Shown: piece by piece, positions 6,887 to 57,839 of the stretch
How the letters are laid out: each line of letters opens with the position of its first letter
Numbering within the stretch: the stretch's first letter is position 1
Assembly: GCF_054482595.1 (NCBI RefSeq)
Contig: NZ_CM137008.1
Length of the DNA stretch: 64,000 nt
Strand: one strand, 5' to 3'
Notes under the pieces: generated by a model
Told to the model about the DNA's origin: nothing
What the model saw: the letters and a program-made list of their open reading frames with translations, nothing else
Databases searched by the model: none
Made by a program: the position numbers and the translations under genes

Positions 6887-6891
6887 GCATA

Positions 6892-7947: not shown

Positions 7948-7961
7948 GAAACAGGTGAAAA

Positions 7962-9163: not shown

Positions 9164-9173
9164 GGCAATCAAA

Positions 9174-35392: not shown

Positions 35393-35668
35393 GTGGCTTC
35401 TGTTTCTATCAGCTGTCCCTCCTGTTCAGCTACTGACGGGGTGGTGCGTAACGGCAAAAGCACCGCCGGACATCAGCGCTATCTCTGCTCTCACTGCCGT
35501 AAAACATGGCAACTGCAGTTCACTTACACCGCTTCTCAACCCGGTACGCACCAGAAAATCATTGATATGGCCATGAATGGCGTTGGATGCCGGGCAACAG
35601 CCCGCATTATGGGCGTTGGCCTCAACACGATTTTACGTCACTTAAAAAACTCAGGCCGCAGTCGGTAA
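35393..35668 (+). CDS. insA: IS1 InsA, 91 aa
   Basis: [43 protein letters not shown]... Confidence 0.95.
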
Positions 35669-36090
35669 CCTCGCGCATACAACCGGGCAGTGACGTCATC
35701 GTCTGCGCGGAAATGGACGAACAGTGGGGCTATGTCGGGGCTAAATCGCGCCAGCGCTGGCTGTTTTACGCGTATGACAGGCTCCGGAAGACGGTTGTTG
35801 CGCACGTATTCGGTGAACGCACTATGGCGACGCTGGGGCGTCTTATGAGGCTGCTGTCACCCTTTGACGTGGTGATATGGATGACGGATGGCTGGCCGCT
35901 GTATGAATCCCGCCTGAAGGGAAAGCTGCACGTAATCAGCAAGCGATATACGCAGCGAATTGAGCGGCATAACCTGAATCTGAGGCAGCACCTGGCACGG
36001 CTGGGACGGAAGTCGCTGTCGTTCTCAAAATCGGTGGAGCTGCATGACAAAGTCATCGGGCATTATCTGAACATAAAACACTATCAATAA
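35587..36090 (+). CDS. insB: IS1 InsB frame (expressed as InsAB' by -1 frameshifting)
   Basis: ...[28 protein letters not shown]...[52 protein letters not shown]... Confidence 0.9.
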
Positions 36091-36319
36091 GTTGGAGTCA
36101 TTACCGAATCAACCTATGGTGCGGTATGTTTAAGTATGCCGGTATTCAATATGTATAACAGAGTTAACTATGCAATCTCACTTTCTGGCGATCCGGTAAT
36201 TTATTCAGGAAATAAGATAGACAGCTATCTGGAGTTGCTCCGGAAATGCACAGGGCAAATATCATATGGGCTGGGATACAGAAACGAAAATGAACATTTA
36301 CGAAAAGGAAACTGAGGTA

Positions 36320-37225
36320 ATGAAAAAATTCAGCGGCATTATTCCACCGGTATCCAGCACGTTTCATCGTGACGGAACCCTTGATAAAAAGGCAATGCGC
36401 GAAGTTGCCGACTTCCTGATTAATAAAGGGGTTGACGGGCTGTTTTATCTGGGTACCGGTGGTGAATTTAGCCAGATGAATACAGCCCAGCGCATGGCGC
36501 TCGCCGAAGAAGCTGTAACCATTGTCGACGGGCGAGTGCCGGTATTGATTGGCATCGGTTCCCCTTCCACTGACGAAGCGGTCAAACTGGCGCAGCATGC
36601 GCAAGCCTGCGGCGCTGATGGTATCGTCGCCATCAACCCCTACTACTGGAAAGTTGCGGCGCGGAATCTTGACGACTACTACCAGCAGATCGCCCGCAGC
36701 GTCACACTGCCGGTGATCCTGTACAACTTTCCGGATCTAACCGGTCAGGACTTAACCCCGGAGACCGTGAAACGTCTGGCACTGCAAAATGAAAATATCG
36801 TCGGCATCAAAGACACCATCGACAGCGTCGGCCATCTGCGCACGATGATCAACACCGTTAAGTCTGTACGTCCGTCATTTTCGGTATTCTGCGGCTTCGA
36901 CGACCATTTACTGAATACCCTGCTGCTGGGCGGCGATGGCGCGATATCCGCCAGCGCTAATTTTGCTCCGGAACTCTCTGTCGGTATCTACCGCGCCTGG
37001 CGCGAGGGCGATCTGGCAACTGCCGCCACCCTGAATAAAAAGCTCCTGCAACTGCCCGCGATTTACGGCCTTGAAACGCCGTTTGTCTCACTGATCAAAT
37101 ACAGCATGCAGTGCGTGGGGTTGCCGGTGGAGACATATTGCCTGCCGCCGATTCTTGACGTCTCAGAAGAAGCCAAAGAAAAAGTCCACGCACTGCTGGC
37201 CGCGCAGGGCATTTTATCGGACTGA
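36320..37225 (+). CDS. yjhH: 2-dehydro-3-deoxy-D-pentonate aldolase, 301 aa
   Basis: MKKFSGIIPPVSSTFHRDGTLDKKAMREVADFLINKGVDGLFYLGTGGEF... is K-12 YjhH (DapA/NanA-family aldolase). Confidence 0.9.
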   Translation: MKKFSGIIPPVSSTFHRDGTLDKKAMREVADFLINKGVDGLFYLGTGGEFSQMNTAQRMALAEEAVTIVDGRVPVLIGIGSPSTDEAVKLAQHAQACGADGIVAINPYYWKVAARNLDDYYQQIARSVTLPVILYNFPDLTGQDLTPETVKRLALQNENIVGIKDTIDSVGHLRTMINTVKSVRPSFSVFCGFDDHLLNTLLLGGDGAISASANFAPELSVGIYRAWREGDLATAATLNKKLLQLPAIYGLETPFVSLIKYSMQCVGLPVETYCLPPILDVSEEAKEKVHALLAAQGILSD

Positions 37226-37235
37226 GGAGAAGATC

Positions 37236-39203: not shown

Positions 39204-39309
39204 AAGCAAAAATAAAAACATCCAGACACCTGAATTATCCGGTTACGCATTATTCATCCTGTGCGCAGCCGGATAATGACGGGTCGTTACCCTATGATGA
39301 GAGGACGTT

Positions 39310-40659
39310 ATGCCACTAATTATCGTTGTGGCAGGGATTGCTTTACTCCTGCTTTTAACCATAAAAATTAAGCTTAATACGTTTGTTTCGTTAATTATTG
39401 TCTCGATTGCTGTCGCCATCGCCAGTGGTATGGATTTGAGTAAAGTCGTCACCTCAGTCGAATCCGGACTTGGCGGTACGCTGGGCCATATTGGTTTGAT
39501 ATTTGGGTTCGGTGTTATGCTCGGTCGCTTGCTGGCCGATGCGGGGGGGGCGCAGCGAATAGCGCTGACCATGCTGAATTATTTCGGGAAAAATAAACTT
39601 GACTGGGCAGTGGTCTGTTCGGCGTTTATTGTCGGTATCGCACTTTTTTTCGAAGTCGGTTTAATTCTTCTGGTACCTATTTTATTCGCTATTGCCCGTG
39701 AAGCAAAAATATCACCGATGTTTATGTGTGTGCCGATGCTTTCCGGTTTGCTGGTCGCACACGGTTTTTTGCCGCCGCACCCCGGCCCGACAGTAATCGC
39801 CAGAGAATATGGTGCTGATGTAGGATTGGTACTGATATACGGTATCATTGTCGGCATTCCAACCTTTATTCTTTGCGGCCCGGTATTGAATAAATTCTGC
39901 CAGCGCATTATTCCGGAAGCCTTTAAAAAAGAGGGGAATATAGCCTCTCTCGGCGCGACCCGCCGGTTCAGCGAAAGCGAAATGCCTGGCTTTGGGATCA
40001 GTTTTCTCACGGCAATGCTGCCGGTGATCCTGATGGCGGTTGTCACCATCATCCAGATGACTCATGCCAAAAGTGCCGCGGATTCAGGCTTATTCTACAA
40101 CGTGCTACTGTTCTTAGGTAATTCGACGATCGCCATGCTGATTTCACTGCTGTTCGCGATCTATACCATGGGCCTGGGGCGCGGGAAAACAATCCCTGAC
40201 CTGATGGATTCTTGCGGAAAAGCTATCGCGGGTATTGCCGGTCTGCTGCTGATTATCGGTGGTGGTGGTGCATTCAAGCAAGTTCTCATCGACTCTGGCG
40301 TTGGTCAGTATATTTCCACCCTGGTTTCGGGTATGGATATTAACCCGATCCTGATGGCCTGGGGCGTGGCCGCATTCCTGCGTATTTGTCTGGGTTCAGC
40401 CACCGTCGCGGCGATCTCTACCGCCGGTCTGGTCATCCCATTGTTGGCAGTACATCCCAATACCAACCTGGCCTTGATTACGCTGGCTACCGGTGCCGGA
40501 TCCTGTATTTGTTCTCACGTTAACGATGCCAGTTTCTGGATGATTAAAGACTTTTTTGGCCTGACCACCAAAGAAACGCTGTTATCCTGGACGCTGATGT
40601 CCACACTCTTATCCATCAGTGGGCTGATTTTTATTCTGCTCGCCAGCTTAGTTTTATAA
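39310..40659 (+). CDS. yjhF: GntP-family permease, 449 aa
   Basis: [42 protein letters not shown]... is K-12 YjhF. Confidence 0.9.
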
Positions 40660-42032: not shown

Positions 42033-43037
42033 TTATTGATTAGCGGCGATAATAAGAACAATACCCACAATGTATGAAATAAACATAGTCAGCAGCAGTT
42101 TATTGGTTCCGGCTGGCGCACTGGCAAATTCTCTCCAGATGAAGACTCCCCAGATCACGGCAATCATTGTGGCACCCTGTCCCAGACCGTAGGAAATGGC
42201 ATAACCCGCCTGACCAGACGCAATCAAACTGAATGCCAGACCGACACACCAAATCATACCGCCCAGCCAGCCGCAAACATGATCCCGTAAACTCCCGGAA
42301 AAATACATTTTCCTGTAGACCGGTTCTCCTGAAATAGGCTTTTTCATGACCAGCGTGTTAAGGACAAAGTTCGACAAAAACAGCCCCACTGCAAACAGAA
42401 CAAGTGCTGAGTACGGCGTCATCAGACCGCTGGCAGGCTGGCTGAAATTGTCAGACATGGAGTCCGCCAGGAAGCGGAAAAACCATCCCATGATGATACC
42501 CGCAAGAATGGCAGTGATGAGGCCTTTGTTACGGCGAGATTTATCCGCCTCCTGCGTGACACGGCCATAGGCTATCGCGGTAAAAATAATGGCGATCACA
42601 ACGCAGGCGACACCGAGGAACAGAATGAGCGGATCGCCCTGCGGATTGCCGATATAGGTGGTGATCACACCCAGAGCCAGTGCCAGCCCCACCCCCACAG
42701 GAAAAGCTACCGCCATACCGGCAAGATTAATAGAAGCCACCAGAAGAATATTGGAAATATTGAAGATAATCCCTGCCAGTATTGCCGACATCAGACTACT
42801 GCTGCTCGCCTGCTGAATATCAGGTATAAAGCTGCGACCGGCTTCGCCCATAGAACCCAGAGTGAAGGCAAATAACAAAGAACACAGCAATAATCCAATT
42901 GAATAATCCCAATAGAATAGAGGGAACTCCCATTTTTTATTACTGACAAGTTTAGTTGTATTCGCCCATGAACCCCAGCAAATCATGGTAATAAAACACA
43001 TTATTATGGCGACAGCATACGATTCCACGATAAACAT
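42033..43037 (-). CDS. 10-TM sugar-type transporter of the DMT superfamily (GRP/RbsU/GlcU-like), 334 aa
   Basis: It has two repeated 5-TM halves, and the loop RVTQEADKSRRNKG splits them. It is the last gene downstream of the mtnK-mtnA-ald2 cluster on the same strand. Confidence 0.6.
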   Translation of the reverse strand: MFIVESYAVAIIMCFITMICWGSWANTTKLVSNKKWEFPLFYWDYSIGLLLCSLLFAFTLGSMGEAGRSFIPDIQQASSSSLMSAILAGIIFNISNILLVASINLAGMAVAFPVGVGLALALGVITTYIGNPQGDPLILFLGVACVVIAIIFTAIAYGRVTQEADKSRRNKGLITAILAGIIMGWFFRFLADSMSDNFSQPASGLMTPYSALVLFAVGLFLSNFVLNTLVMKKPISGEPVYRKMYFSGSLRDHVCGWLGGMIWCVGLAFSLIASGQAGYAISYGLGQGATMIAVIWGVFIWREFASAPAGTNKLLLTMFISYIVGIVLIIAANQ

Positions 43038-43140
43038 AAATAACTCCTTGTGGTAGTTACAATCAATCGTTGTGGACAGAGGGCATAACAGCCATTCCTC
43101 GAATGGCTGTTATATGTTATTAATTAAAATAAAGCTGTAA

Positions 43141-43782
43141 TTACGCTTTCAAACCATACGTTTTGAATTTTTCAAGAACGATGGTCATTTCGGCTTCAGA
43201 CAGAACGGGAACATCGTGATGTAATCCGCCACATTTGATGTATAAATCAGCCAGCGTCTCAGTTTCACCCGCCAGCCACAACGTCTTTTCCAGCGTGACG
43301 TCCATGGCCAGCATACCGTGGTGCTGCATCAGTAAGGACTTACTTTCTCTGATTCCTTGAGATACACTGTCGGCCAGTTCAGGGCTGCCAAAGGTATAAT
43401 AGGGAATACAGGGAATATGATCCGTCCCCGATACCGCCACCATATAATGAATAGCCGGAATTGAATGATTATGTATTGCCACCGCCGTGGAATTCACCGC
43501 ATGCGTATGTATGACAGCATTCAATTCTGGTCTGGCTTTATAACACGCCAGATGAAATAGCCATTCACTTGATGGTATTTTACCCGCTTCAGGTATTCCC
43601 TTATCGTCTACAAAGACAATCATGTCCGGCGTCATCTTTGAATAAGCGATCCCACTCGGTGTAATCAACATGCCACCGGTATATCTGGCACTCACATTAC
43701 CTGATGTTCCTTGATTCAGACCTGACGCATTCATTTCCCGACAAATGGAAATGATATTTTCTGCTAACTTAATCCTTTCCAT
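43141..43782 (-). CDS. ald2: Class II aldolase (FucA/adducin fold): 5-deoxyribulose-1-P / methylthioribulose-1-P aldolase of the DHAP shunt, 213 aa
   Basis: GLNQGTSGNVSAR, SSEWLFHL, VIHTHAVNSTA and MQHHGMLA are the zinc and phosphate motifs of class II aldolases. It is adjacent to mtnA and mtnK. Confidence 0.75.
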   Translation of the reverse strand: MERIKLAENIISICREMNASGLNQGTSGNVSARYTGGMLITPSGIAYSKMTPDMIVFVDDKGIPEAGKIPSSEWLFHLACYKARPELNAVIHTHAVNSTAVAIHNHSIPAIHYMVAVSGTDHIPCIPYYTFGSPELADSVSQGIRESKSLLMQHHGMLAMDVTLEKTLWLAGETETLADLYIKCGGLHHDVPVLSEAEMTIVLEKFKTYGLKA

Positions 43783-43812
43783 TACTGCTCCTTAACAGAA
43801 GTGATCGTCGTT

Positions 43813-44928
43813 TTAATGCAGCTCGTCCTGGAGTGCTTTACTCTTCAGGTCAGCAAACATATCCGCCAGAGCTGACTTACTGGCAGCACAGACTCCCCGT
43901 TCAGTAATGAGGCCGGTAATGTATCGGGCAGGCGTGACGTCGAAAGCGTAGTTCCCACAACGGGTTCCTTCAGGGGCGGTATTGACCCAGCTCAATTCTC
44001 CCTGAGTATTTATCCCATAGACATGGGACTGCTCTTTTCCGTCACGTTGCTCAATCGGAATGGTTTTTCCGTCCTCGATAGTCCAGTCAATAGTGGGAGA
44101 AGGTAACGCGACGTAGAAGGGAACATGGTTATCATGGGCCGCCAGCGCCTTAAGATAGGTACCAATTTTATTACAGACATCCCCTCTGGCCGTGGTTCGA
44201 TCGGTCCCCACTATACAGAGATCAACGTCACCGTGTTGCATCAGGTGGCCACCCGCATTGTCGGCAATCAGGGTGTGAGGAATACCGTGTGAACCCAGTT
44301 CAAATGCCGTGAGTCCACCCTGATTACGTGGCCGCGTTTCATCCACCCAGACGTGAACAGGGATTCCGTTTTCATGCGCTTTATAGATGGGAGAAAGCGC
44401 GGTTCCCCAGTCTACAGTCGCCAGCCAGCCTGCGTTACAATGTGTCAGGATATTGACCACACTCCCGGCCGATTTTTTCTGGGCTATTTCGCGGATGACT
44501 TCTGCACCATGTAATCCAATTTGTTCACACAACGCGACATCTTCCTCGGCAATTTCTGCCGCCAGCGCCCAGGCCACATCCTTGCGCTCTGATACACAGA
44601 GATCCTTCAGTGTGGCTATCATCCTGTCGAGAGCCCATTTGAGGTTAATTGCAGTTGGTCGGGTTTTGATAAGAAGGTCATAGTAACGCTGCAGACCTAC
44701 GTCACTGGCATTGTGGTTCATTCCCAGTGCGATACCATATGCCGCAACGACACCAATAAGCGGGGCGCCACGAACCCACATCTCCTGAATAGCCGCAGCG
44801 GCCATTTCCGCAGAGGTAAGCGCCACCACTTCAAACTTAAAAGGCAGCTTAGTCTGATCGATGATCTCTACCGCTTTTCCATCCCCGGAAACCCAGACCG
44901 TTCGGTAGTGTTTACCTTTAATATTCAT
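43813..44928 (-). CDS. mtnA: S-methyl-5-thioribose-1-phosphate (5-deoxyribose-1-P) isomerase, 371 aa
   Basis: [92 protein letters not shown] are eIF-2B/MtnA-family blocks. Confidence 0.85.
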
Positions 44929-44937
44929 AATGACCTC

Positions 44938-46197
44938 TTACTTAACCTTCGCAGACTGGATGACGGAGTCCATATTTTTAAACTGGCGGGCATTGACAAT
45001 AAGATCGCGCGCCATGGTCAATGCACGTCGTTCACATTCTGCGCGAAGCTCTGTATTTTCAATCTGTTTCAGCTCGGCAACGCCAGCAAAACCAATGATC
45101 CGGCGATTCATTTCCATGCCGGCATTCACCAGGGAATCTTCAAGCAGCGTGGCAAAAAACTGATCCTGTGCGTCCTCAAGAGCGGCCCTGTTCTGTTGAT
45201 ACATTTCTGTCGGCCACGCGTCACCCTGTGTTTTGTTGTCCCAGAGCTGGCGGAACTCCCGGGTGAAAACTGACCAGGTGTGGACAATCTGCTGAAGTAG
45301 CCATTCCTGATAGTCAGCGCGACGTTGCTCATTTGCATCCCACCCAGGGCGTGAGAAGAACGCCAGCAGGAGGTTGCCAATATAGTTGCCGATATCAAAC
45401 GCCATTGGTCCCATGAAACCGAACTCCGGATCAATCACTTTGGTATCCGTGTCGGTCACCATGATTGAGCCTGAATGAAGGTCACCATGTAACAATGCCT
45501 GCGCTTCTGTCATAAATTTGTACTTATAACGCATGGCAACCTGGAGCATCTCTACATCAGCCCAGGCCTTATGGACGGCATCGTCCAGCTCAGGAGAAGT
45601 CCAGTTATTCCGTTCCGCGTTGTAATAGGGCTCTGTGAAGATCAGATCTTCCGTAATTTTGCACAGCTCATGATTTAACGCGAACTCAGCAGTAAGCGCT
45701 TTTTTCTGTTCTGCTGACATGCCAATGTCAGACGTATTAAAGAGAGTCTGTGCTAAAAATCTGCCGATATCTTCAGCTAGCTTAGGGAATTTTTTACCGT
45801 TAATCAGTCCCTTACGCAGAATTACGTGAGGCGTCAAATACTCCATGGCAAACAGTGCCATTTCCGGGTCATAAAAATAGACCTGGGGAATCAGTGTGTG
45901 ACCCGCGTACTTGGCTTCCTGACATAAGACGTTGTACTCAAAGCCCGCACGGCTCAGAGATAAAGGCCATCCTTCGCCCCCTGCACGAAGCCAGGGCAGA
46001 GCTTGTTTTACAATGATGGTTTTATGTGTCCCCTTAACGATAAACACCATGTTCAGGTTTCCGTCCCCCACTTCTGAAACTTTCCACTCTTCTGGTAACC
46101 CTCCCGGTTCGCATGAAGGGGTCAGTCTGGACGAGAGATAACCAGGCAGCGTGTCACATGTCAGCGGCTTGTAACCTGATGGAATTGAATCCGTCAT
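44938..46197 (-). CDS. mtnK: Methylthioribose / 5-deoxyribose kinase, 419 aa
   Basis: EVGDGNLNMVFIV, HGDLHSGSIMV and IDPEFGFMGPMAFDIG are the MtnK (APH-like kinase) signatures. There is a 9-bp gap to mtnA. Confidence 0.85.
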   Translation of the reverse strand: MTDSIPSGYKPLTCDTLPGYLSSRLTPSCEPGGLPEEWKVSEVGDGNLNMVFIVKGTHKTIIVKQALPWLRAGGEGWPLSLSRAGFEYNVLCQEAKYAGHTLIPQVYFYDPEMALFAMEYLTPHVILRKGLINGKKFPKLAEDIGRFLAQTLFNTSDIGMSAEQKKALTAEFALNHELCKITEDLIFTEPYYNAERNNWTSPELDDAVHKAWADVEMLQVAMRYKYKFMTEAQALLHGDLHSGSIMVTDTDTKVIDPEFGFMGPMAFDIGNYIGNLLLAFFSRPGWDANEQRRADYQEWLLQQIVHTWSVFTREFRQLWDNKTQGDAWPTEMYQQNRAALEDAQDQFFATLLEDSLVNAGMEMNRRIIGFAGVAELKQIENTELRAECERRALTMARDLIVNARQFKNMDSVIQSAKVK

Positions 46198-47395: not shown

Positions 47396-48508
47396 ATGAA
47401 AAAAATTACAGTGGCACTTTCTGTGGTTGCGGCATCTGTTCTGATGGCAATGTCTGCACAAGCGGCAGAAATCTATAACAAAGACGGTAACAAACTGGAT
47501 CTGTACGGCAAAGTTAATGCAGAGCATTACTTCTCTTCTTCAGCTAGTGATGACGGGGATAAAACTTATGCTCGTATGGGTTTCAAAGGTGAAACTCAGA
47601 TTAATGACCAGTTAACCGGTTTTGGTCAGTGGGAGTACGAATTTAAAGGTAACCGTACTGAAACTGAAGGTTCTGATAAAGATAAAACTCGTCTTGCGTT
47701 TGCAGGGCTTCGCTTTGGCGATTATGGTTCGCTCGACTATGGTCGCAACTACGGTGTAGCTTATGATGTTGGCGCTTGGACTGACGTGCTGCCGGAGTTT
47801 GGTGGAGATACCTGGACTCAGACTGATGTATTTATGACCCAGCGTGCTACTGGCGTAGCGACCTATCGTAACAATGATTTCTTCGGCTTGGTTGATGGTC
47901 TGAACTTTGCTTTGCAGTATCAAGGTAAAAATGATAGTGCTGCAAAAGTGAATAACTGGAAAGGCCGTGACGAAGTTGAATCTAATGGTGATGGCTTTGG
48001 TCTGTCAGCTACTTACGATTATGAGGGATTTGGCGTTGCTGCAACCTATGCAAAATCTGACCGTACTGATGGGCAGGTATCCTATGCTAAAGACAGCCCT
48101 CTGAATGCCTCTGGTAAAACTGCTGAAGTATGGGCTACGGGCCTGAAATATGATGCAAACAACATTTACCTGGCTGCAACTTATTCTGAAACTCAGAATA
48201 TGACAGTCTTCGGTGATGACCATATCGCAAACAAAGCGAAAAACTTTGAAGCTGTTGCTCAATACCAGTTTGATTTCGGCTTGCGTCCGTCCATCGCTTA
48301 CCTACACTCTCGCGGTGAAAATATTGGTGCGTTCGGTAACCAGGATCTAGTTGAATACATCGACGTAGGTGCGACTTATTACTTCAACAAAAATATGTCC
48401 GCTTTCGTTGACTACAAGATCAACCTGATTGATGAAAGTGAATTTACCAAAGCATCTGAGGTTGCAACCGACAACATCGTTGCTGTTGGTATGACCTACC
48501 AATTCTAA
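47396..48508 (+). CDS. General porin of the OmpC/OmpF/NmpC family, 370 aa
   Basis: The signal peptide is [40 protein letters not shown]. It has [37 protein letters not shown] and the C-terminal ..VAVGMTYQF. Hairpins follow directly. Confidence 0.9.
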
Positions 48509-50244: not shown

Positions 50245-51435
50245 TTAACGTTTCCGTCCTGGAAATACAAATAGTGCAATAACGGGAGATATTACCATCA
50301 GAACAAAAACATAGGTAAATCCAAGTGTAAATCCGCCTGTTAGATCGACCGACCAGCCAATTAACTGACTGTTTATCGTTGCCAAAATAAATGTACAAAC
50401 CCAGAAGGTGGACATTGAATAAGTAACAGTTTGGGTATTCGCATTTTTTTGTTCTTCTTTTGGAATGGAGAAGATGAATGCAAACCAGGTGGCAAAAATA
50501 GAACCCGTCAAAAACGAACAAACCAATATAACGATATCATTAGTGGCAAATAACATTGCAAAGGTTGTAATAGCCATAAAGATACTGGAAATAAATAGCC
50601 ATGATTTATAATTATACCCACGGTTTTTAAAGTACGGCCCCATCAATGCACCAAGTAAAATTCCCACCTGATTGACTGTGCCACTCAAGTGAGCACAGGA
50701 GTCAGGGGGAAGATTAGCATATTTTGCATAGTACAGAGGCAGAAATGTGAACATAAAAATCATCATGATCATTGCCCCAGCATACTGAATAATCATTCCC
50801 CAGACAATACGATTAAACAATACATCCTTTAATACAGATATTCGCTGTTCATAACTTATAGATATATGGCTATTCTGTTGTTGCTCTTCATCCGTGAAAC
50901 ATATTATCCAGACAACCCCCAATATTAACGTAATTATTCCATAGATAGCTAACAGATTACGCCACCCGTTGAACAGCAGTGATAAATAACCTGCCAATGT
51001 CAATGCAATAATTGTACCGATAATATTTGAAGTGCAATTTATACTATTTAATGTTGACGCCATTTTGTTATCGAAAAAGCGAGCAACCGTGGGCACCAGT
51101 GATACAAGGCAAATAGCCCCCCCCAGCCCACCAAGAAAACGAATAATCAATAACAAAGTAAAGTTATTAATAAATGGAATGAGCAAGGAGCTCCCAATCA
51201 TTATACATCCAAGAAAATAGGATTTTCGGGTGCCGAGCCGGGAAACAAAGACTGCAGTACAAACAGCTCCCACAATTTTAGCCCATAAAATTACATTTGA
51301 CATCAATGCAGCATGTGATACATCAACATTAAAATCACTCATAATTTGTGGCATTACGGCCCCTGTCGTAGCCCAGGCGGCACCAAATACCATATAAACG
51401 GTGTAAAGAATGAATTCAATGACCCATTTTTTCAT
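50245..51435 (-). CDS. MFS transporter, 396 aa
   Basis: It is a 12-TM profile protein with low GC. Its start codon overlaps the stop of the upstream PepT-like gene (ATGA at 51432-51435). Confidence 0.75.
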   Translation of the reverse strand: MKKWVIEFILYTVYMVFGAAWATTGAVMPQIMSDFNVDVSHAALMSNVILWAKIVGAVCTAVFVSRLGTRKSYFLGCIMIGSSLLIPFINNFTLLLIIRFLGGLGGAICLVSLVPTVARFFDNKMASTLNSINCTSNIIGTIIALTLAGYLSLLFNGWRNLLAIYGIITLILGVVWIICFTDEEQQQNSHISISYEQRISVLKDVLFNRIVWGMIIQYAGAMIMMIFMFTFLPLYYAKYANLPPDSCAHLSGTVNQVGILLGALMGPYFKNRGYNYKSWLFISSIFMAITTFAMLFATNDIVILVCSFLTGSIFATWFAFIFSIPKEEQKNANTQTVTYSMSTFWVCTFILATINSQLIGWSVDLTGGFTLGFTYVFVLMVISPVIALFVFPGRKR

Positions 51436-52685
51436 TTTTGTACCTCAGGGACACTTAGCTCAACCATTTCCAGCAGCATTTCACTGGCAAGACGCAGGGA
51501 TTCCACAGGCAAAAACTCTCTGGTTGAGTGAAAATTGTGCGCCCCTGTAAATATATTAATAGTAGGCAGCCCTTTTGGGGTGATGACGCTACCATCATAA
51601 CCACCGCGCATAATCAGTGGTTTTGGTGTAATGCCAAGGTTACGCATTGCCTTTCTAACGTTATCTAAGATTGCAGGTGTTTTATCAAGCGCTGGTTTGA
51701 CATTTTCATATATATCGGTTAACACTAATGTTATTCTTTCACTCTTCCAGCGCTGATTAATACTCTTAACAATGTTCTCGAGTACGGCTTTACGTTGTTT
51801 ATATCCTGTTAACTCAAAGTCCCGAATAGCAATATCAAGCGTGGCGCTGGCTGTATCACCATGGAGATTATGGACCCAATAATATCCTTCCCGTTTTTCA
51901 GTATGCTCAGGCCTTTCTTTTTCAGGTAATGCGGCGATAATTTCCGTTGCTATACACAACGCATTAACAAGCTTACCTTTAGCACTCATTGGATGTGCTG
52001 TAACACCACGAACTGTAATTCGTGCACTACCTGCATACCAGTTTTCAACAACATATTCTCCAATCTCACAACAGTCGAGACAGATACCAAAATCAGAATT
52101 CAGTTCACCAACATCAAGCGCTTTTGCCCCTCTGATACCGGTCTCCTCATCAGGCAAAAGAACAAGACGAATATCACCATGAGAAAAGGAGGGTGTATTA
52201 ATCATATATTTGAGAGCTTCAACACCTGCTGCAATGGCAGCTTTGTCGTCAGCCCCCAGCAAGCTGGTGCCATCAGTTACAATAATATCCTGACCGATAT
52301 AGTTGAGTAGTTCTGGATTATCCTGTGGGGATAGTTTTTCCACACTCCCTGCAAACGGTATAGCACCTCCGTTATACTTTTTCACTCGGAAAGCATGTGT
52401 ATCTGTACTGTGGTCCGGAGCTGTATCAAGGTGTGCAAAGAATACGATAGAAGGTGCATCAGGAATATTAGCGGGTAAATGAATTGTGGCAATAGCATTT
52501 TCTTTTATGCTTGTTTGTACCTCTGGAACATCAGAAAATTGATTTACAACATATTCTGCCAGTTTATATTGATTTTTACAGCTTGGAAGCTCCTTGCTAC
52601 CATCAACCGATGTCGTATTTATTTTTGTGTAATATAAAAAAGTCTCAATTATTTTCTCTAAGTCAATGCGTTTTTTCATGATCAT
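51432..52685 (-). CDS. Peptidase T-like M20B tripeptidase homologue, 417 aa
   Basis: FFAHLDTAPD, LLGADDKAAIAAG, LLPDEETGIRGAKAL, GVTAHPMSAKGKLVNAL and RGGYDGS have the PepT motif order. Confidence 0.75.
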   Translation of the reverse strand: MIMKKRIDLEKIIETFLYYTKINTTSVDGSKELPSCKNQYKLAEYVVNQFSDVPEVQTSIKENAIATIHLPANIPDAPSIVFFAHLDTAPDHSTDTHAFRVKKYNGGAIPFAGSVEKLSPQDNPELLNYIGQDIIVTDGTSLLGADDKAAIAAGVEALKYMINTPSFSHGDIRLVLLPDEETGIRGAKALDVGELNSDFGICLDCCEIGEYVVENWYAGSARITVRGVTAHPMSAKGKLVNALCIATEIIAALPEKERPEHTEKREGYYWVHNLHGDTASATLDIAIRDFELTGYKQRKAVLENIVKSINQRWKSERITLVLTDIYENVKPALDKTPAILDNVRKAMRNLGITPKPLIMRGGYDGSVITPKGLPTINIFTGAHNFHSTREFLPVESLRLASEMLLEMVELSVPEVQK

Positions 52686-53076: not shown

Positions 53077-53590
53077 TGAACCGCCCCGGAAATCCTGGAG
53101 ACTAAACTCTCTGAGAAAGAGGCAAACAGGATGACTAAAAAAACACGTTTTTCCCCCGAAGTCCGTCAACGGGCAGTTCAATGCTTTGTCGAATAAACAT
53201 TTACCTGAACGATTAACTGCAACGGCTATCCTTACCGACAATCAACGTCAATAAAAATCTGTACTGACTCGTCAGCACTGGGTTCGATCAGTAGGAACAT
53301 GAATTCAAAGGCCTCCTTGCTGAATCTCAAGACTCCTCCGATTCCAAAGATAAACCCCGTCTTAAGTTCGCTGGCCTGAAATTCGGTGACTATTGTCTAT
53401 ATCGGGATCACCACGGTTGTGTGATTAATCATCGTCGATCATAAAGCGTCTATGGATGTACTGCGGCGTTCCTGCTACTGGTGATCACCCTGTGGTTGTG
53501 CAATTCCAAACGGATGAAGCGAGAGTAACAGACATCACGCCGCAATCGGGGGCGGCGTGTAGACGTGGTTAATTACTATCAAATATATTA
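53077..53590 (+). mobile_element. IS3-family remnant: IS629/IS1203-like left end plus decayed orfB piece
   Basis: TGAACCGCCCCGGAAATCCTGGAGACTAAACTCTCTGAGAAAGAGGCAAACAGGATGACTAAAAAAACACGTTTTTCCCCCGAAGTCCGTCAACGGGCAGTTC (IRL plus MTKKTRFSPEVRQRAV), then unrelated or decayed sequence. Near 53540-53580 a frame reads ..PNQTDEARVTDIT.. (the W-x-TDIT region of OrfB). Confidence 0.65.
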
Positions 53591-53602
53591 ATCAGGCCGA
53601 TT

Positions 53603-55054
53603 CTATTTGCTTTCATTTATGGTTTCCATCATGAGCTGTTGCTGCTTTTCTTTGGACAGTCGAGCGATACCAAAGCCTGTGAACCCCCACAGCGTCGCAA
53701 AGAAAATGCCACTCCAGCAGAGAATAGCCCACGGAAGATAGCTTAATGTAGCAACGCCAAGTGTACCTGCCATGTAGGCACCCGCGGCAGTCCAGGGCAG
53801 AATTGGTTCAAATATGGTGGCAGAGTCTTCTACAGTCCTTGCCAGATTTTTTGGATGTAGGCCGCGCTCAATATAAGCACTTCGTAGCATTTCAATCGGA
53901 ATCAGGATTGATATCTGACCATTACAGGTCACGCTAATCATTGTTAAACCACAGGCAATAGTCGCAAGAATCATGGTTCCTGTGGAATGAACTAATTTGA
54001 GCAGATTATGGACGATGACTTCTAAAGCGCCGCTCAAGGCTAATGTTCCTGCAAATGAAAGGGCGCAGAAACAAATAAGCAACGTACTCATCATCGAGTT
54101 CATGCCACCGCGGTTTAACAAATTACCTAATAGCGGATTAACATCTTTATCGGTAAGCATTGAAACGTTAAATCCGTCTACTGCACTTTTAACAATGTCG
54201 TGTAGTGCGAACCCCTGAATAACGCTGGCGTTGATCATGGCTACCAGTGCCGAAACAAGCATAATTGGAATGGTTGGTTTCTTGGTAATCGAACCGTACA
54301 GGACAATGGCAATGGGTAGCAATAACAATAAATTAAAATGATAAATTCCTTTTAATCCTTCAGTGATTAGCTGAATTTTTTCGGGAATGGTTGAGCCGCC
54401 GAGCTCGCCATTCATCCCATAGAGCGTCATAACAAAGGCTGACAGTATCAATGAAGGAAGGGTTGTATAAAGTAAATGAGCGATGTGTTCATAGAGATCT
54501 ATCTGGGCTGCCATTGCGGCTAAGTTAGTATCACCAGAAAGGGGAGACAGTTTGTCCCCGAAGTAAGCCCCTGCCACAATAGCGCCTGCAGTTGCTGCCA
54601 GATTAGCCTCCATTCCGATAGCCACACCCATAAACGCAACACCGACGGTGCCTGCGGATCCCCAGGATGTCCCTGTGCATACAGAAACGACGGCAGTAAC
54701 GAGCAGGGCCGTCACATAGATCATGGAAGGATTTATCAGAATAAGGCCGTAATAAATCATCAGCGGAATAGTACCGCCTATCATCCATGTCCCAATCAGG
54801 AGGCCCACGCTGATCAAAATTAGCAGAGCAGGCATTGTTTTAGCGATTTTCTGCGATATTGATTCAAGGATTGCATTGTAGCCATACCCCAACCGCTTAA
54901 CTAACAGTGCAGCAATGACGGTTGAAAGAACCATTAATGGCTCAGGTGGCAGATCGAATGCCGCATAACCAAATCCCAGCAATAGTATCATCGCTAGTAT
55001 TGGTAATAATGATTCCACCAGAGTTGGGGATCTTGGAGTATTGTTATTATTCAT
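53603..55054 (-). CDS. NhaC-family membrane transporter, 483 aa
   Basis: ORF track 53603..55102; probable start at MNNNNTPRS (55054). It has the polytopic motifs TGTSWGSAGTVGVAFMG and GAYFGDKLSPLSDTN-like (GAYFGDKLSPLSGDTN), typical of NhaC-type carriers. It overlaps the upstream lyase gene by 8 nt. Confidence 0.75.
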   Translation of the reverse strand: MNNNNTPRSPTLVESLLPILAMILLLGFGYAAFDLPPEPLMVLSTVIAALLVKRLGYGYNAILESISQKIAKTMPALLILISVGLLIGTWMIGGTIPLMIYYGLILINPSMIYVTALLVTAVVSVCTGTSWGSAGTVGVAFMGVAIGMEANLAATAGAIVAGAYFGDKLSPLSGDTNLAAMAAQIDLYEHIAHLLYTTLPSLILSAFVMTLYGMNGELGGSTIPEKIQLITEGLKGIYHFNLLLLLPIAIVLYGSITKKPTIPIMLVSALVAMINASVIQGFALHDIVKSAVDGFNVSMLTDKDVNPLLGNLLNRGGMNSMMSTLLICFCALSFAGTLALSGALEVIVHNLLKLVHSTGTMILATIACGLTMISVTCNGQISILIPIEMLRSAYIERGLHPKNLARTVEDSATIFEPILPWTAAGAYMAGTLGVATLSYLPWAILCWSGIFFATLWGFTGFGIARLSKEKQQQLMMETINESK

Positions 55055-56225
55055 GAAGGGAAACTCCTGTAGTGAAGGGGATGCTCTGATAAATCCGTTC
55101 AAATGCTTGTGTAAGATTGCTTCTCGGCGTGGCTATGTTCACACGGAAAAAACCAAGTCCTTCATCGCCAAAATCTGATCCCCAGCTCATCTCAACACCT
55201 GCGAGCGAGACAAACCAATGGCGTAGTTGCTCTTCGCTGATGTTCATTGCCCGGTAGTCGATCCACAACATGTAAGTTCCGCCACCAGAGGCGACAAACC
55301 AGTCTGGAAAATGAGCTTGGCAGAATGATTGAACCCAGCTCCTGTTTTCGACCAAATAATCTTTTAATGCTGCTAACCAAGAATCGCCATGGCGGTAAGC
55401 ACAGAGAAATGCAGGAACAGAGAAATAACCAGGATTATGGATACCTGCTGCAATAAGAGCTAATTTAAACTGTTCACGATATTTATCGTTAGCAATAACA
55501 ATATTTGCGATTTCAAGTCCGGCCATATTAAAAGTTTTTGCTGGAGATGTACAAATAAACGAGTTTTGTGCAACGTATGAGCTTATAGAAGAAATTGTTT
55601 GATGTTGTTTTTGGGTGAAGTTGAAGTCTGCATGAACATCATCAGAAATAATAAAAACATTATATTTTTCTGCTAATGAAGCTATTTTCCTTAGATTGTC
55701 TTCTGACCAGATTGTTCCTGTTGGATTATGCGGCGATATTAGAATGAAACAACAAGCCATTTTAAACTTATCTTCGAGATCCGCAAAGTCTATTTCATAG
55801 TGGTGGTCACGATAAAGTAACGCACTTTCCAGCAATACTCGATGGTTGACTTCAACTGCATGACTAATAGGATGATAGGCTGGTGCCAGGCTGACAATAG
55901 CATCTCCCGGTTGGGTAAAGTTCTGGATAAATAATGAGACGGCCTGTACTACCCGTGGGCAAAAAACAATGTGTTCAGGGTTGACCTTCCACGAGTAATG
56001 GCGTTGATACCACTGTGCTGCCACTTGCTGCCAGTCATCACTTAATAATGTATAACCGTAGATACCTTTCTGATTTGCGACAGATAATTCAGAAACTATA
56101 AAATCAGCTACAGGAATATCCATATCAGCTACAGACAGGGGAATGATGTCACGCCCCTTGTTATTATATTTAGCGCTATAGGTTCCGTCGCGTGAAATAA
56201 CTTTATCAAAATTATAAACTTTCAT
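55047..56225 (-). CDS. PatB/MalY-type PLP-dependent C-S lyase, 392 aa
   Basis: ORF track 55047..56339; probable start at MKVYNFDKVISRDGTYSAKY (56225). It has PLSVADMD, SPHNPTGTIW and SPAKTFNMAGL (the PLP lysine). It is the second member of this family in the window. Confidence 0.8.
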   Translation of the reverse strand: MKVYNFDKVISRDGTYSAKYNNKGRDIIPLSVADMDIPVADFIVSELSVANQKGIYGYTLLSDDWQQVAAQWYQRHYSWKVNPEHIVFCPRVVQAVSLFIQNFTQPGDAIVSLAPAYHPISHAVEVNHRVLLESALLYRDHHYEIDFADLEDKFKMACCFILISPHNPTGTIWSEDNLRKIASLAEKYNVFIISDDVHADFNFTQKQHQTISSISSYVAQNSFICTSPAKTFNMAGLEIANIVIANDKYREQFKLALIAAGIHNPGYFSVPAFLCAYRHGDSWLAALKDYLVENRSWVQSFCQAHFPDWFVASGGGTYMLWIDYRAMNISEEQLRHWFVSLAGVEMSWGSDFGDEGLGFFRVNIATPRSNLTQAFERIYQSIPFTTGVSLHE

Positions 56226-56399
56226 ATTTGTTACTCGCCCGGTTTTATCGTTAGGGTAATGTAATATTTCGAGGGAGGAAGTGTTATTCTGTATTTTGTT
56301 TTCGTTATTATGAAAATTTGCATATGTGATGTTTATCACAAAGATGTTAACTATCTGTCAATAAAAAGACTCCAGCAAATGTAAACGTTTTACATCGCT

Positions 56400-57839
56400 T
56401 AAGCCTATGGAATTTACATAAAAAAAGGGCGTGCCGAGTCTTTCGACCCAATCATTATCTCGGTAACTCCATTCACAAGAGCAGGAAATAACCTCTTCAA
56501 CAAATAACAGACTGATGCCTGCGAGCGCGCTCCCCAGGTTTCCGGGCTGAAAGTACCGCCGCACTCGTTTAACGCGGAACAGTCTGTGTTGGCGGTTTAA
56601 TGGTGGATGTTGCTGTAGACCACAACTGATGAGGCAACGGAGTTTACCGTGATGATTCCTATTTATCATTTTCTGGTCAGTGCCGCGATTCTGGTATTCA
56701 TGGTGATTTTCTGTCAGACACGCCATCGCGACCACCGTAACTGGCTGGCTCTGCTGCTATTCGTATTATGATCTGTAAACAGCTGGCCATTGCGGATGGT
56801 TAAAGGAACAATTGTGGGGACAACTGACACATTGCGTAAAATGCAGCGTTATGAACAACTGAGTCAGCACGGGGCTGACAGCTGGAAAATCCTGCTGGGA
56901 GCACCGTTATATGACACGATTGTTATTGTCACTAGTGAGAGTGTGCGCAGGAATTATATGACAGCGTATGGCTATCCCGTATCAACCACACCGTGGCTGA
57001 ATATGGCACCCGGTTTATTTATTGACGGTTATAACTCGACAGCCTCCAGTACTGTGCCTTCCCTGAGCCGGACACTGATTTATGACTATGAGCAGCCCCC
57101 TGATTCCGACAACAACGTGGTGGCGCTGGCAGCAAAAGCAGGATACAGCACATAGTGGATATCCAATCAGGGAAAACTGGGGGAGTATGACACACGCATC
57201 TCTGTTATTGCTTCTGATGCGGAGCATACCGCTTTCCTCAAGAAAGGCAGCTTCGCTTCCCGTAAAACAGATGACAAACTGTTGTTACAGGAAACAGAAC
57301 GTGCGCTGGCGGATACATCCTCTCCGAAGATAATTTTCCTGCACATGATGGGTTCTCATCCAAATCCGTGTGACAGCCTTAACTCCTGGCCGAATAATTA
57401 CCTGGAGCAGTATCCCCGAAAAATTGCCTGTTACCTCGCCAGCATCAGTAAACTGGATAACTTTCTTGGCCAGCTTGATGGTATCCTTCGCCGGTACTCA
57501 CGTCATTTCGCCATGCTTTACTTTTCTGGCCTTGGGCTGTCGGTCAGCGACAGTGCTAATCCTGTTCATCATGATGGTCATGTGCAGGGGGGCTACAGCG
57601 TTCCCCTGATTATTACCGCCAGTGACATCACGTCTCATCAGTCCGTCAGCAGGAAAATCAATGCCCGTAATTTCGCAGGCATTTTTCAGTGGCTGACCGG
57701 TATTCGTACCGAAAATATAACGCCATTCAATCCGCTGACAGACGAAGATAATGAACCCGTTATGGTTTTTAACGGAGAGAAAAATGTGCCGGCAGACAGT
57801 CTGAAACCGCAGCCACTTATTCTTCCGGACCACAGGTAA
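56400..57839 (+). pseudogene. Phosphoethanolamine-transferase / sulfatase-family gene (YjgX/YhbX-like), multiply frameshifted
   Basis: The fragments are: the TM piece MIPIYHFLVSAAILVFMVIFCQTRHRDHRNWLALLLFVL*; the sulfatase core IVIVTSESVRRNYMTAYGYPVSTTPWL (56790..57155); and the C-terminal half KIIFLHMMGSHPNPCDSL...SVPLIITASD (57282..57839). The left boundary is approximate. Confidence 0.7.

Follow-up and report, generated by a model that had tools for sequence, protein, structure and literature searches.

A gene for a PatB/MalY-type lyase and a gene for an NhaC-family carrier overlap on the minus strand of an Escherichia coli genomic island, which raises the question of what compound the two proteins might handle together. 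The pair lies within a stretch of 64,000 nucleotides that corresponds to the E. coli pheV island and is referred to here as the window. A preliminary description of this DNA proposed that the pair imports and desulfurates a cysteine S-conjugate or a cystathionine-like or similar thioether compound. Because the cassette resides in the xylose-utilization operons of bacteria from three phyla, the compound that it takes up and cleaves may be an amino acid bearing xylose and not a sulfur compound. In the following sections, we describe the gene pair and its spread in E. coli, its protein families, its conserved neighborhoods in other species, and its promoter, and we weigh the competing accounts of its function.

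The gene pair and its mobile context

The positions, gene sizes, and 8-nt overlap reported in the preliminary description agree with our reading of the open reading frames and with RefSeq, in which the identical sequence from strain Santai is annotated with these two coding sequences (Table 1). The low GC content that had been noted for both genes was likewise found (40.8% for the lyase gene and 45.2% for the carrier gene, vs 49.1% for the whole window). An AGGAG can be read at 55064-55068, 10 nt ahead of the carrier ATG, and the identical overlap of lyase and carrier genes recurs in the copies from Klebsiella oxytoca, Pluralibacter, and the locus that we call L091. The best explanation is that lyase and carrier form a functional unit, namely a translationally coupled catabolic cassette.

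Table 1. Features of the lyase-carrier locus, in window coordinates.
Feature	Position	Strand	Basis or remark
Mobile module, extent common to E. coli contexts	53079..56644	.	99.4% identity to UTI89 over 53079-56644
GC-rich hairpin, possible terminator	53536..53559	-	Consensus scan only; ~45 nt past carrier stop; weak T tail
NhaC-family (TC 2.A.35) secondary carrier, 483 aa	53603..55054	-	TIGR00931 and PF03553 matches
8-nt overlap ATGAATAA, lyase stop/carrier start	55047..55054	-	Direct sequence reading
PatB/MalY-type PLP-dependent beta-lyase, 392 aa	55047..56225	-	ATG at 56225; TIGR04350 and PF00155 matches
Putative -10 hexamer TACATT	56258..56263	-	T, A, and final T invariant in alignment A2; inference only
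41-nt conserved block, proposed XylR-type operator	56281..56321	-	Alignment A2; between CRP site and putative -10
Perfect CRP-type palindrome TGTGA-N6-TCACA	56325..56340	.	~100 nt upstream of lyase ATG

In E. coli, the pair is carried by a 3.6-kb IS-bounded module that is present in 378 of 5426 complete genomes (~7%), and its carriers include UTI89, ST131, and plasmids and take in major ExPEC lineages; K-12 lacks the module. Plasmid p140_MLI109, for example, is 99.4% identical to the module over 53396-56644. A 103-nt IS-end repeat occupies 53077-53179, and in each of the contexts examined the module is flanked by IS elements. We explain the E. coli copy as a horizontally spread, IS-bounded version of the cassette from which adjacent xyl genes have been lost, and it is because this copy is such a stripped-down mobile module that the xyl partners were invisible to the preliminary description. 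The search for a donor of the E. coli module found none, the nearest copies being those of L091, Serratia fonticola, Pluralibacter, and K. oxytoca at 69-72% DNA identity. The neighboring pepT and MFS genes (50245-52685) were considered as parts of the system and rejected, as they are joined to the module in 9 of the 5426 genomes and fall outside its common extent.

Properties of the lyase

Both family calls in the preliminary description were borne out, with the lyase scoring 369.2 bits against the TIGR04350 "PatB family C-S lyase" model (cut-off 340, a modest margin) and also matching PF00155, and with the carrier scoring 593.3 bits against the TIGR00931 NhaC model (cut-off 370) and 208.5 bits against PF03553 (cut-off 23). 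The best solved relatives of the lyase are 4dgt (E 2e-78), Bacillus subtilis PatB (BsPatB, 6qp3), cystalysin, and MalY; the nearest ones also include Streptococcus anginosus Lcd, FnaPatB1, and entries that bear the name cysteine-S-conjugate beta-lyase. Like PatB, MalY, and cystalysin (B. subtilis 6QP3, E. coli 1D2F, T. denticola 1C7N; S. hominis ShPatB 6QP1/2), the enzyme belongs to the fold-type I PLP family and possesses the PLP lysine, the carboxylate-binding arginine, and the Asn/Asp/His PLP ligands. Its PLP lysine K230, located in SPAKTFN (an S-x-x-K motif), aligns with the KTFN lysine of BsPatB, Lys234 (PMC7385124). The PLP ligands N167, D195, and H198 are invariant among 58 clade members and the outgroups, as is R361 in the motif FRVN (100% conserved in clade and outgroups), whose equivalent in ShPatB, Arg376, pairs with the substrate's alpha-carboxylate (PMC7385124).

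What sets this lyase apart from PatB, MalY, and cystalysin is its obligate pairing with an NhaC-type carrier and a group of 13 near-invariant residues that are peculiar to the carrier-linked clade and absent from MalY, PatB, 4dgt, and 9k71; among them are S31 in place of Trp, R91 in place of Gly, E238 in place of Gln, and H263-N264. All 13 are common to lyases found beside xyl genes and to those found beside the gene for RidA (see below), which suggests that carrier-linked lyases of both contexts share one specificity. R91 and E238, at least, may concern binding of the PLP phosphate instead of the substrate. The leaving-group pocket of ShPatB is apolar (Tyr25, Val46, Tyr72, Val108, Pro134, Phe274, and Thr276; PMC7385124), whereas the clade-specific S31, Y56, R91/Q94, and H263/N264, which would fall at or near pocket positions by an approximate numbering offset only, are polar.

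A second PatB/MalY lyase is encoded at 20998-22173 (363 bits on TIGR04350), and the lyase described here is 29% identical to either of the E. coli MalY-type proteins, this one included. Since the second gene is flanked by those for a MalX-like PTS IIBC and an alpha-galactosidase, the earlier statement that the two lyases are wired to different transporter classes is correct. The malX-malY pair and the malX-like/malY-like pair of the window (19415-22173) resemble the cassette in that a PatB-type lyase gene stands beside a transporter gene in a sugar regulon, and differ from it in that the transporter is a PTS IIBC and the gene order is transporter, then lyase. MalY also represses MalT, whereas no regulatory role is indicated for the NhaC-linked lyase.

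Properties of the carrier

By its TIGR00931 and PF03553 matches and its MleN-like predicted fold, the carrier belongs to the NhaC family (TC 2.A.35), which comprises the Na+/H+ antiporter NhaC, the malate/lactate antiporter MleN, ArcD, and predicted Tyr carriers; its score against the ArcD arginine/ornithine antiporter model NF052307 was 285.7 bits, below the cut-off of 650. A sequence search found no solved structure for the family of the carrier, and an AF2 model (pLDDT 85.7) was compared with other folds. This model superimposes on the MleN model 9a59 with a TM-score of 0.88 (35% identity), on elevator-type solute carriers of the TRAP, DASS, AbgT, and ArsB groups with TM-scores of 0.44-0.61, and on NapA and PaNhaP, representing the NhaA/NapA-type and CPA-type antiporters, with TM-scores of 0.17-0.18. 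The predicted fold, which bears on Na+/H+ antiport activity only indirectly, is best explained by an elevator-type solute carrier.

NhaC-family genes have been reported under Tyr T-boxes (PMC2494555). This report and the neighbors of lyase-less relatives uphold the earlier claim that the family includes carriers of amino acids: the closest such relatives of the carrier adjoin a gene for an isoaspartyl (beta-aspartyl) dipeptidase, an enzyme whose substrate is also a beta-substituted amino acid. In these IadA-NhaC pairs of Virgibacillus, Salinicoccus, and Priestia, the carrier is 47-52% identical to ours and is preceded by the beta-aspartyl dipeptidase (TIGR01975, 456 bits); they differ from the cassette in that the partner is a hydrolase rather than a PLP lyase, xyl genes are lacking, and a sigma-54 activator is encoded nearby. 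We know of no literature on such pairs. In contrast to an NhaC antiporter, the gene context of the present carrier points to an amino-acid conjugate as substrate, not ion exchange, and the label "Na+/H+ antiporter NhaC" is probably misleading for it, just as "MalY/PatB family protein" is probably uninformative for the enzyme.

Conserved pairing and xylose operons

The possibility raised in the preliminary description that the two genes might be unlinked in other genomes is decisively contradicted by a survey of 76 judgeable NhaC loci from other species, in 63 of which the lyase gene adjoins the carrier gene on the same strand. The paired loci belong to Proteobacteria, Firmicutes, and Actinobacteria and span Proteus, Orbaceae, Pasteurellaceae, Paenibacillus, other Bacillales, Levilactobacillus, and Actinomycetota; moreover, the homologue rankings of lyase and carrier mirror one another. 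A literature search found no paper that links NhaC with a C-S lyase.

The dominant conserved partners of the pair are xylA, xylB, xylFGH, and xylR, and xyl genes occur within 6 kb of 30 of the 63 pairs vs none of the 13 pair-less loci. The arrangements are varied: xylR / lyase-nhaC-xylA-xylB in Proteus and Serratia; xylA-lyase-nhaC-xylB in the enterobacterial contig L093; xylFGH-lyase-nhaC-xylR or xylBA / lyase-nhaC-xylR in Haemophilus; ROK / xylA-xylB-lyase-nhaC in Scopulibacillus, Trueperella-like MAGs, Schaalia, and Mobiluncus; and xylA-ROK-xylB-lyase-nhaC in Lederbergia. The XylA of the ROK-type loci was confirmed by its match to TIGR02631 (594 bits). At least eight families from three phyla have the pair within a xylose operon, and the carrier gene is the sole transporter gene in the examined stretch of the xyl locus in Proteus, Serratia, Zophobihabitans, some Haemophilus, and the Gram-positive loci. 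Nearly all bacteria with xyl-linked carriers are animal-associated, namely Pasteurellaceae, Proteus, Actinomyces, Trueperella, Mobiluncus, insect-gut Orbaceae, and ExPEC.

A second recurrent neighborhood contains a gene for a YheO-like regulator and/or RidA, which accompany 28 of the 63 pairs; the RidA gene comes after the pair in Paenibacillus and ahead of it in Levilactobacillus. RidA is a 2-aminoacrylate deaminase that removes the 2-aminoacrylate released by lyases of this kind, and its position next to the pair in these two genera fits the logic of import followed by lyase cleavage that had been put forward earlier. The 64-kb window itself contains no homologue of RidA or of the xyl genes.

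The promoter region

The CRP-type palindrome ahead of the lyase gene is the only perfect match in the 64-kb window (0.09 expected) and is conserved upstream of the pair in Serratia, Proteus, Zophobihabitans, Pluralibacter, and L091 (alignment A2). Conservation with the promoters of lyase-nhaC-xylAB in Serratia and Proteus extends to the 41-nt block. A position weight matrix (PWM) of this block finds its best match in the xylA-xylF intergenic region of K-12 (score 15.5, 0.012 expected), in the xylF-proximal part and in the orientation of xylF, within the K-12 xyl region in which the XylR footprint presumably has its position; the matrix also scores at the equivalent place in L093. Raw local alignment of the module promoter with the K-12 xylA/xylF promoters gave a score of 20 vs a shuffle mean of 19, which is not above chance. 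The K-12 XylR is 83% identical to that of S. fonticola. We infer that the 41-nt block is a putative XylR-type operator. Judged from the alignment, the E. coli copy is one that keeps the promoter driving lyase-nhaC-xylAB in Serratia; with the CRP site and the putative XylR operator retained, the host XylR and CRP could control the module, and the host xylAB could use its product.

Proposed function and competing explanations

We tentatively propose, as a reading that falls somewhat short of even probability, that the cassette imports and beta-eliminates a beta-substituted amino acid tied to xylose, with O-beta-D-xylosyl-L-serine as the leading candidate. The NhaC-family carrier would bring in an L-amino acid bearing a leaving group on its beta carbon, and the PatB-type PLP enzyme would remove that group by alpha,beta-elimination, setting the leaving group free and producing 2-aminoacrylate, from which pyruvate and ammonia would form. 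The cassette would belong ancestrally to the xylose regulon, being apparently co-transcribed with xylA and xylB in many bacteria. Because it lies in this regulon and is often the sole transporter in the examined xyl stretch, the leaving group would most likely be D-xylose and the substrate O-beta-D-xylosyl-L-serine, and the freed xylose would be routed through XylA and XylB. Xylosyl-serine is the linkage stub left by the degradation of animal proteoglycans and is excreted in human urine.

The narrower statement that the cassette is an O-xylosyl-L-serine utilization system, in which the PatB-like enzyme cleaves the C-O bond to supply XylAB with D-xylose and release pyruvate and ammonia, is possible and in our estimate lies on the unlikely side. 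Such PLP-dependent beta-elimination at the C-O bond of xylosyl-serine would be an enzyme activity not described so far; our literature search found neither cleavage of xylosyl-serine by any PLP enzyme nor bacterial catabolism of this compound. Several observations speak against xylosyl-serine. The lyase passes the PatB C-S lyase model, and to our knowledge every characterized member of the PatB family cleaves C-S bonds. The conventional way to free xylose is by a glycosidase. It is not evident why bacilli living in soil would consume proteoglycan stubs, about 45% of the pairs have no xyl genes within 6 kb (those of Paenibacillus and some Actinomyces), and xyl genes are likewise absent beside the copies of E. 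coli, K. oxytoca, and Pluralibacter.

The thioether account retains some standing because the enzyme family is defined by C-S chemistry. Here the compound taken up by the carrier would be a cysteine S-conjugate, cystathionine, lanthionine, djenkolate, or a related thioether, and breakage of its C-S bond by the lyase would give pyruvate, ammonia, and either a thiol or H2S as a supply of sulfur, carbon, or nitrogen. The lyase exceeds the PatB C-S lyase cut-off, its nearest solved relatives (BsPatB, cystalysin, S. anginosus Lcd, and FnaPatB1) are C-S lyases, and the presence of RidA and the conserved pairing fit this account equally well. A precedent for import followed by lyase action exists in the thioalcohol pathway of Staphylococcus hominis, in which uptake by DtpT and the action of PepA are followed by cleavage by ShPatB to pyruvate, ammonia, and a leaving group (PMC7385124); this pathway shares with the proposed cassette the import of an amino-acid conjugate and PatB-type beta-elimination, but its transporter is of another family and its genes are unclustered. 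The gene context, however, lends the thioether substrate no support. Its dominant elements are the xyl partners, and the location of the pair inside xylose operons is left unexplained; in 11 Firmicute loci scanned with Rfam, the pair is preceded by neither an S-box nor a T-box nor any other riboswitch, the only hit being an unrelated TPP riboswitch, and no conserved sulfur-metabolism genes were found near the pair in the loci examined. The metY-metX genes located 3' of the pair in four related Actinomyces/Trueperella loci would be in keeping with a sulfur role, but were rejected as a clue since they are limited to one lineage and form a standard, separate methionine unit. The departure of the clade from characterized C-S lyases at its 13 near-invariant positions also argues against this account. 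We consider a thioether substrate unlikely.

Still less probable, in our view, is a role in the uptake of a simple amino acid, L-cysteine or L-serine, and its breakdown to pyruvate in the manner of E. coli CyuP-CyuA, serving either detoxification or the supply of carbon and nitrogen; the position of the cassette among xyl genes would then reflect shared CRP control and not a shared substrate. PatB, MalY, and cystalysin do have cysteine desulfhydrase activity, and both the RidA association and the perfect CRP site in the promoter are compatible with such a role; yet shared CRP control does not require that the pair be inserted between xylA and xylB, or that it be joined to xylAB repeatedly and independently behind regulators of the XylR or ROK type, and the frequent status of the carrier as sole transporter of the examined xyl stretch speaks against it as well. 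The pair could also be an accessory of the xylose regulon that shares no substrate with it, consisting of a carrier that really is the Na+/H+ antiporter of its RefSeq and TIGR00931 names and a lyase that moonlights on the xylose activator as MalY does on MalT, MalY being a PatB-type lyase of a sugar regulon with a regulatory second function (RefSeq product name). A conserved protein-protein contact is unlikely given that the xylose regulators differ between phyla (AraC-type XylR vs ROK). The RidA/YheO contexts that lack xyl genes point to metabolism, the predicted fold of the carrier is unlike that of known Na+/H+ antiporters, and all catalytic residues of the lyase are strongly conserved, so that we regard this last explanation as very improbable.

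For the proposed xylose-bearing substrate, a chemical parallel is offered by LmbF/CcbF of lincosamide biosynthesis, which carry out PLP-dependent beta-elimination on a cysteine bonded to the anomeric carbon of a sugar. These enzymes show that glycosyl leaving groups are chemically accessible to the PLP enzyme class; they differ from the proposed activity in that a C-S rather than a C-O bond is cleaved and the pathway is biosynthetic, not catabolic.

Implications

Beyond its presence in ~7% of complete E. coli genomes, the cassette is carried by Haemophilus, Proteus, Serratia, and mucosal actinomycetes within their core xylose loci. Should the link to xylose prove false, one would still have to explain why an inserted PLP lyase and carrier are conserved in the xylose operons of three phyla. 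If the link reflects the substrate, the cassette would represent a new route by which animal-associated bacteria harvest host-derived sugar, would show what a branch of the PatB/MalY family, long an enigma, does physiologically, and would add a new substrate class to the NhaC family. If the substrate is indeed xylosyl-serine, the retention of xylose genes by Haemophilus influenzae and other host-restricted bacteria would be explained, as would the finding that uropathogens (Proteus and ExPEC lineages such as UTI89 and ST131) carry or have acquired the cassette. By extension, other PatB/MalY lyases encoded in sugar loci, including that of malX-malY, might act on glycosylated amino acids.

The lyase-carrier pair and its island

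The preliminary description of this locus reported a PatB/MalY-type C-S lyase gene overlapping an NhaC-family carrier gene by 8 nt, with low GC content in both, and each of these points held: the reading frames have the expected sizes (see table), the overlap is 8 nt (ATGAATAA), and GC content is 40.8% for the lyase and 45.2% for the carrier, against 49.1% for the window. An identical sequence in E. coli strain Santai carries RefSeq CDSs named "MalY/PatB family protein" and "Na+/H+ antiporter NhaC". With AGGAG located 10 nt ahead of the carrier ATG, the overlap forms an arrangement typical of translational coupling. The family assignments were likewise confirmed, as the lyase scores 369 bits on TIGR04350 (PatB family C-S lyase; cut-off 340) and the carrier 593 bits on TIGR00931 (NhaC; cut-off 370), with additional matches to PF00155 and PF03553, respectively. 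The second lyase of the window, correctly described as accompanying a different transporter class, also exceeds the TIGR04350 cut-off (363 bits); it shares just 29% identity with the first, and its gene has a MalX-like PTS IIBC gene on one side and one for alpha-galactosidase on the other. The MalX-like protein is 53% identical to K-12 MalX and the second lyase 29% identical to K-12 MalY; here too, a PatB-type lyase gene is embedded in a sugar locus.

Features of the window discussed in the text
Feature	Position	Strand	Remarks
citCDEFXG citrate-lyase cluster, acnB paralogue, MFS carrier gene	~6900-14750	+	
MalX-like PTS IIBC, second MalY/PatB lyase and alpha-galactosidase genes, in a row	19415-24076	+	second lyase at 20998-22173
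yjhI-yjhH-yjhG-yjhF cluster	~35300-40500	+	xylonate dehydratase, aldolase, GntP permease
GRP-family sugar transporter, fuculose-phosphate-aldolase-like gene, mtnA, mtnK	42033-46197	-	names from RefSeq annotation of identical sequence
Extra ompC paralogue	47396-48508		
pepT-like tripeptidase and MFS carrier genes	50245-52685	-	tripeptidase NF009920, 455 bits; 4-nt overlap; 38-41% GC
IS end	53077-53179		103 nt
Mobile module	53079-56644		3.6 kb
psiE remnant	53395-53528	+	short; downstream of carrier
Carrier ORF	55054 (ATG) to 53603	-	483 aa, ORF reading
Lyase ORF	56225 (ATG) to 55047 (stop)	-	392 aa, ORF reading
TAnnnT hexamer	56258-56263		
Conserved 41-nt block	56281-56321		between palindrome and hexamer
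TGTGA-N6-TCACA palindrome	56325-56340		~100 nt upstream of lyase ATG
Phosphoethanolamine-transferase pseudogene	56619-57839	+	between module and integrase; sulfatase domain split over two ORFs
P4-type integrase	58163-59428		
tRNA-Phe	59626-59701		
yqgA	59807-60514		

The window corresponds to the E. coli pheV genomic island, in which metabolic modules form a mosaic, with IS66, IS3, and ISL3 remnants in between. Copies of the module holding the pair, 99.4% identical, turn up at very dissimilar places in E. coli (beside the choline-microcompartment island of UTI89, in ST131 chromosomes, and on F-type plasmids), always flanked by IS elements in the contexts compared. Of 5426 complete E. coli genomes, 378 carry the pair, and 41 of its places are on plasmids. 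The pepT-like and MFS genes were considered and rejected as part of the same unit, since they lie outside the shared segment and adjoin the pair in only nine of the 5426 genomes; they resemble an independent pair for import and hydrolysis. In E. coli, the functional unit is therefore reduced to the two genes plus approximately 400 nt upstream. The UTI89 and plasmid copies of the module are accompanied by the psiE remnant. Elsewhere in the island, the mtnA-mtnK cluster looks like a "DHAP shunt" cluster for methylthioribose/5-deoxyribose salvage, and the yjh cluster represents a second xylose-related function besides the xylose-operon-derived cassette.

Conservation and genomic context

Eighty loci encoding carrier relatives were fetched, one genome per species, and searched with the lyase. 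The preliminary description had named absence of linkage in other genomes as evidence against its reading; the survey refutes this condition, for among the 76 loci with enough flank to judge, 63 carry a lyase homologue within 600 nt of the carrier gene on the same strand, upstream of it in all except Levilactobacillus (Proteus 6/6, Orbaceae 2/2, Pasteurellaceae 12/12, Paenibacillus 20/20, Lederbergia and Scopulibacillus 2/2, Levilactobacillus 1/1, Actinomycetota 20/22). When homologues of lyase and carrier are listed, the same taxa appear in the same order, and pairing is lost only once carrier identity falls to 47-52%, where the upstream gene encodes a beta-aspartyl dipeptidase (TIGR01975, 456 bits). 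Judged from these comparisons, the pair is an ancient, co-inherited unit. The dipeptidase-linked relatives (loci L072-L084, ~4850-7430 in each; Salinicoccus, Virgibacillus, Priestia, Rossellomorea, and Sporosarcina), often followed by a sigma-54 activator gene, suggest an isoaspartyl-dipeptide uptake and hydrolysis pair.

Clustering of all ORFs in the 80 loci, together with targeted tblastn, yielded only two conserved partner sets. Of the 63 pairs, 30 have xylose genes within 6 kb, compared with none of the 13 loci without a pair; the gene orders are xylR / lyase-nhaC-xylA-xylB (Proteus, S. fonticola, and S. marcescens, with an nhaC-xylA gap of only 12 nt in both Serratia loci), xylR-xylHGF / xylA-lyase-nhaC-xylB (enterobacterial contig L093, with the pair between xylA and xylB), xylBA / xylFGH-lyase-nhaC-xylR or xylBA / lyase-nhaC-xylR (Haemophilus), xylFGH-lyase-nhaC (Orbus and Gallibacterium), ROK / xylA-xylB-lyase-nhaC (Scopulibacillus, Trueperella-like MAGs, Schaalia, and Mobiluncus), and xylA-ROK-xylB-lyase-nhaC (Lederbergia). 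The actinobacterial XylA was confirmed with TIGR02631 (594 bits). This variation by lineage argues for repeated selection rather than a single inherited block, and in many of the loci the NhaC-type carrier gene is the sole transporter gene of the xyl-locus stretch examined. The second set, a YheO-like regulator (PAS_6 + HTH_22) upstream and/or RidA downstream, accompanies 28 of the 63 pairs (Paenibacillus, Levilactobacillus, and several Actinomyces and Schaalia). RidA clears 2-aminoacrylate, which is released by alpha,beta-eliminating PLP enzymes, and its presence beside the pair supports real lyase chemistry.

Two H. influenzae strains (L087 and L088) differ in the presence of xylFGH upstream of lyase-nhaC-xylR. 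In a pan-GWAS of non-typeable H. influenzae, xylA, xylB, and an "NhaC family protein" were enriched in blood isolates (PMC11932112); the latter may be a candidate for the cassette locus.

A putative xylose-type promoter

The palindrome upstream of the lyase gene is the sole perfect TGTGA-N6-TCACA in the 64-kb window (0.09 expected), and palindrome, 41-nt block, and hexamer all recur ahead of the lyase gene in S. fonticola, Proteus, Zophobihabitans, Pluralibacter, and contig L091. In Serratia and Proteus, transcription of xylA and xylB must depend on the same promoter as well. The top match for a PWM built from the 41-nt block was in the K-12 xylA-xylF intergenic region (score 15.5, 0.012 expected), just upstream of xylF and in its orientation; the same place was matched in L093, and the xylA-proximal element more weakly. 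Plain local alignment of the module promoter with the K-12 xyl promoters was not significant. The XylR proteins of K-12 and S. fonticola are 83% identical, and we predict from sequence that the mobile module retains a CRP- and XylR-dependent promoter readable by host regulators.

The enzyme and the carrier

All catalytic residues are present in the lyase (K230 in SPAKTFN, N167, D195, H198, and R361), with the roles of the lysine and arginine taken from work on PatB enzymes (PMC7385124). Against five outgroups (K-12 MalY, the second lyase, C. difficile 4dgt, BsPatB, and 9k71), a set of 58 lyases linked to the carrier stands out by 13 near-invariant residues that the outgroups lack: A18, S31 (Trp elsewhere), Y56, R91 (Gly elsewhere), Q94, D196, A199, F201, E238 (Gln elsewhere), H263, N264, P271, and F352. 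This signature is common to xyl-context and RidA-context lyases, which makes a single specificity for both contexts probable. In ShPatB, the pocket for the leaving group is described as apolar (Tyr25, Val46, Tyr72, Val108, Pro134, Phe274, and Thr276; PMC7385124). An approximate, coordinate-free numbering offset of 15-16, derived from the Lys and Arg residues, puts S31, Y56, R91/Q94, and H263/N264 of the lyase, which are polar, at or near those positions. For R91 and E238, a connection with the PLP phosphate is a possible alternative.

Sequence search found no solved structure among the carrier's relatives. Its AF2 model (42 sequences, pLDDT 85.7, pTM 0.84) matches the B. subtilis MleN integrative model (TM 0.88) and elevator-type organic and inorganic anion carriers (TM 0.44-0.61; the sialic acid TRAP carrier SiaQM, DASS/INDY, NaS1, Pho90, and ArsB), more weakly the AbgT-family MtrF and YdaH (TM ~0.38-0.41), but not the Na+/H+ antiporters NapA and PaNhaP (TM 0.17-0.18). 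Because of these modelled matches, the NhaC-family genes under Tyr T-boxes that are predicted tyrosine carriers (PMC2494555), and the dipeptidase-linked sister group, an amino-acid-conjugate carrier appears more likely than the annotated ion antiporter.

Proposed function

Both genes are annotated yet unstudied, and our literature search found neither a published link between an NhaC carrier and a C-S lyase nor any bacterial catabolism of xylosyl-serine. The preliminary description proposed import of a cysteine S-conjugate or thioether and cleavage of its C-S bond. The enzyme family, a PatB C-S lyase, fits this reading, but the xylose context does not; across the 80 loci no conserved sulfur genes adjoin the pair (a metY-metX unit follows it solely in one lineage of actinobacteria), 11 Firmicute loci have no S-box, T-box, or other riboswitch ahead of it, and we consider a thioether substrate unlikely. 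A catabolic or detoxification pair for cysteine or serine would account for RidA and CRP while leaving the operon fusions with xyl genes unexplained, and seems improbable. Least credible is an ion antiporter joined to a MalY-like regulator, which is contradicted by xylose regulators that differ between phyla, by the RidA contexts, and by the carrier's predicted fold.

In the mechanism that we favor as the most economical, the carrier would import an L-amino acid bearing a leaving group on its beta carbon, and the lyase would eliminate that group to give aminoacrylate and then pyruvate and ammonia; this generic core of import and beta-elimination is probably correct. Since the cassette is tied to XylA and XylB, the leaving group is read as D-xylose, which would connect it to these enzymes. 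Base-catalysed beta-elimination of O-glycosyl-serine is textbook chemistry, and PLP enzymes that eliminate sugar-bound sulfur from cysteine are known (e.g., LmbF). O-beta-D-xylosyl-L-serine, which forms the stub of the animal glycosaminoglycan-protein linkage and was reportedly isolated from human urine by Tominaga et al. in 1965, is the natural compound matching these requirements and the leading, though less than probable, candidate for the actual substrate. Almost all taxa in which the cassette is linked to xyl genes live in association with animals (Pasteurellaceae, Proteus, mucosal actinomycetes, insect-gut Orbaceae, and ExPEC). Taken as a whole, the proposal that the cassette imports and beta-eliminates a xylose-linked amino acid is tentative, a serious possibility that stops short of being probable.
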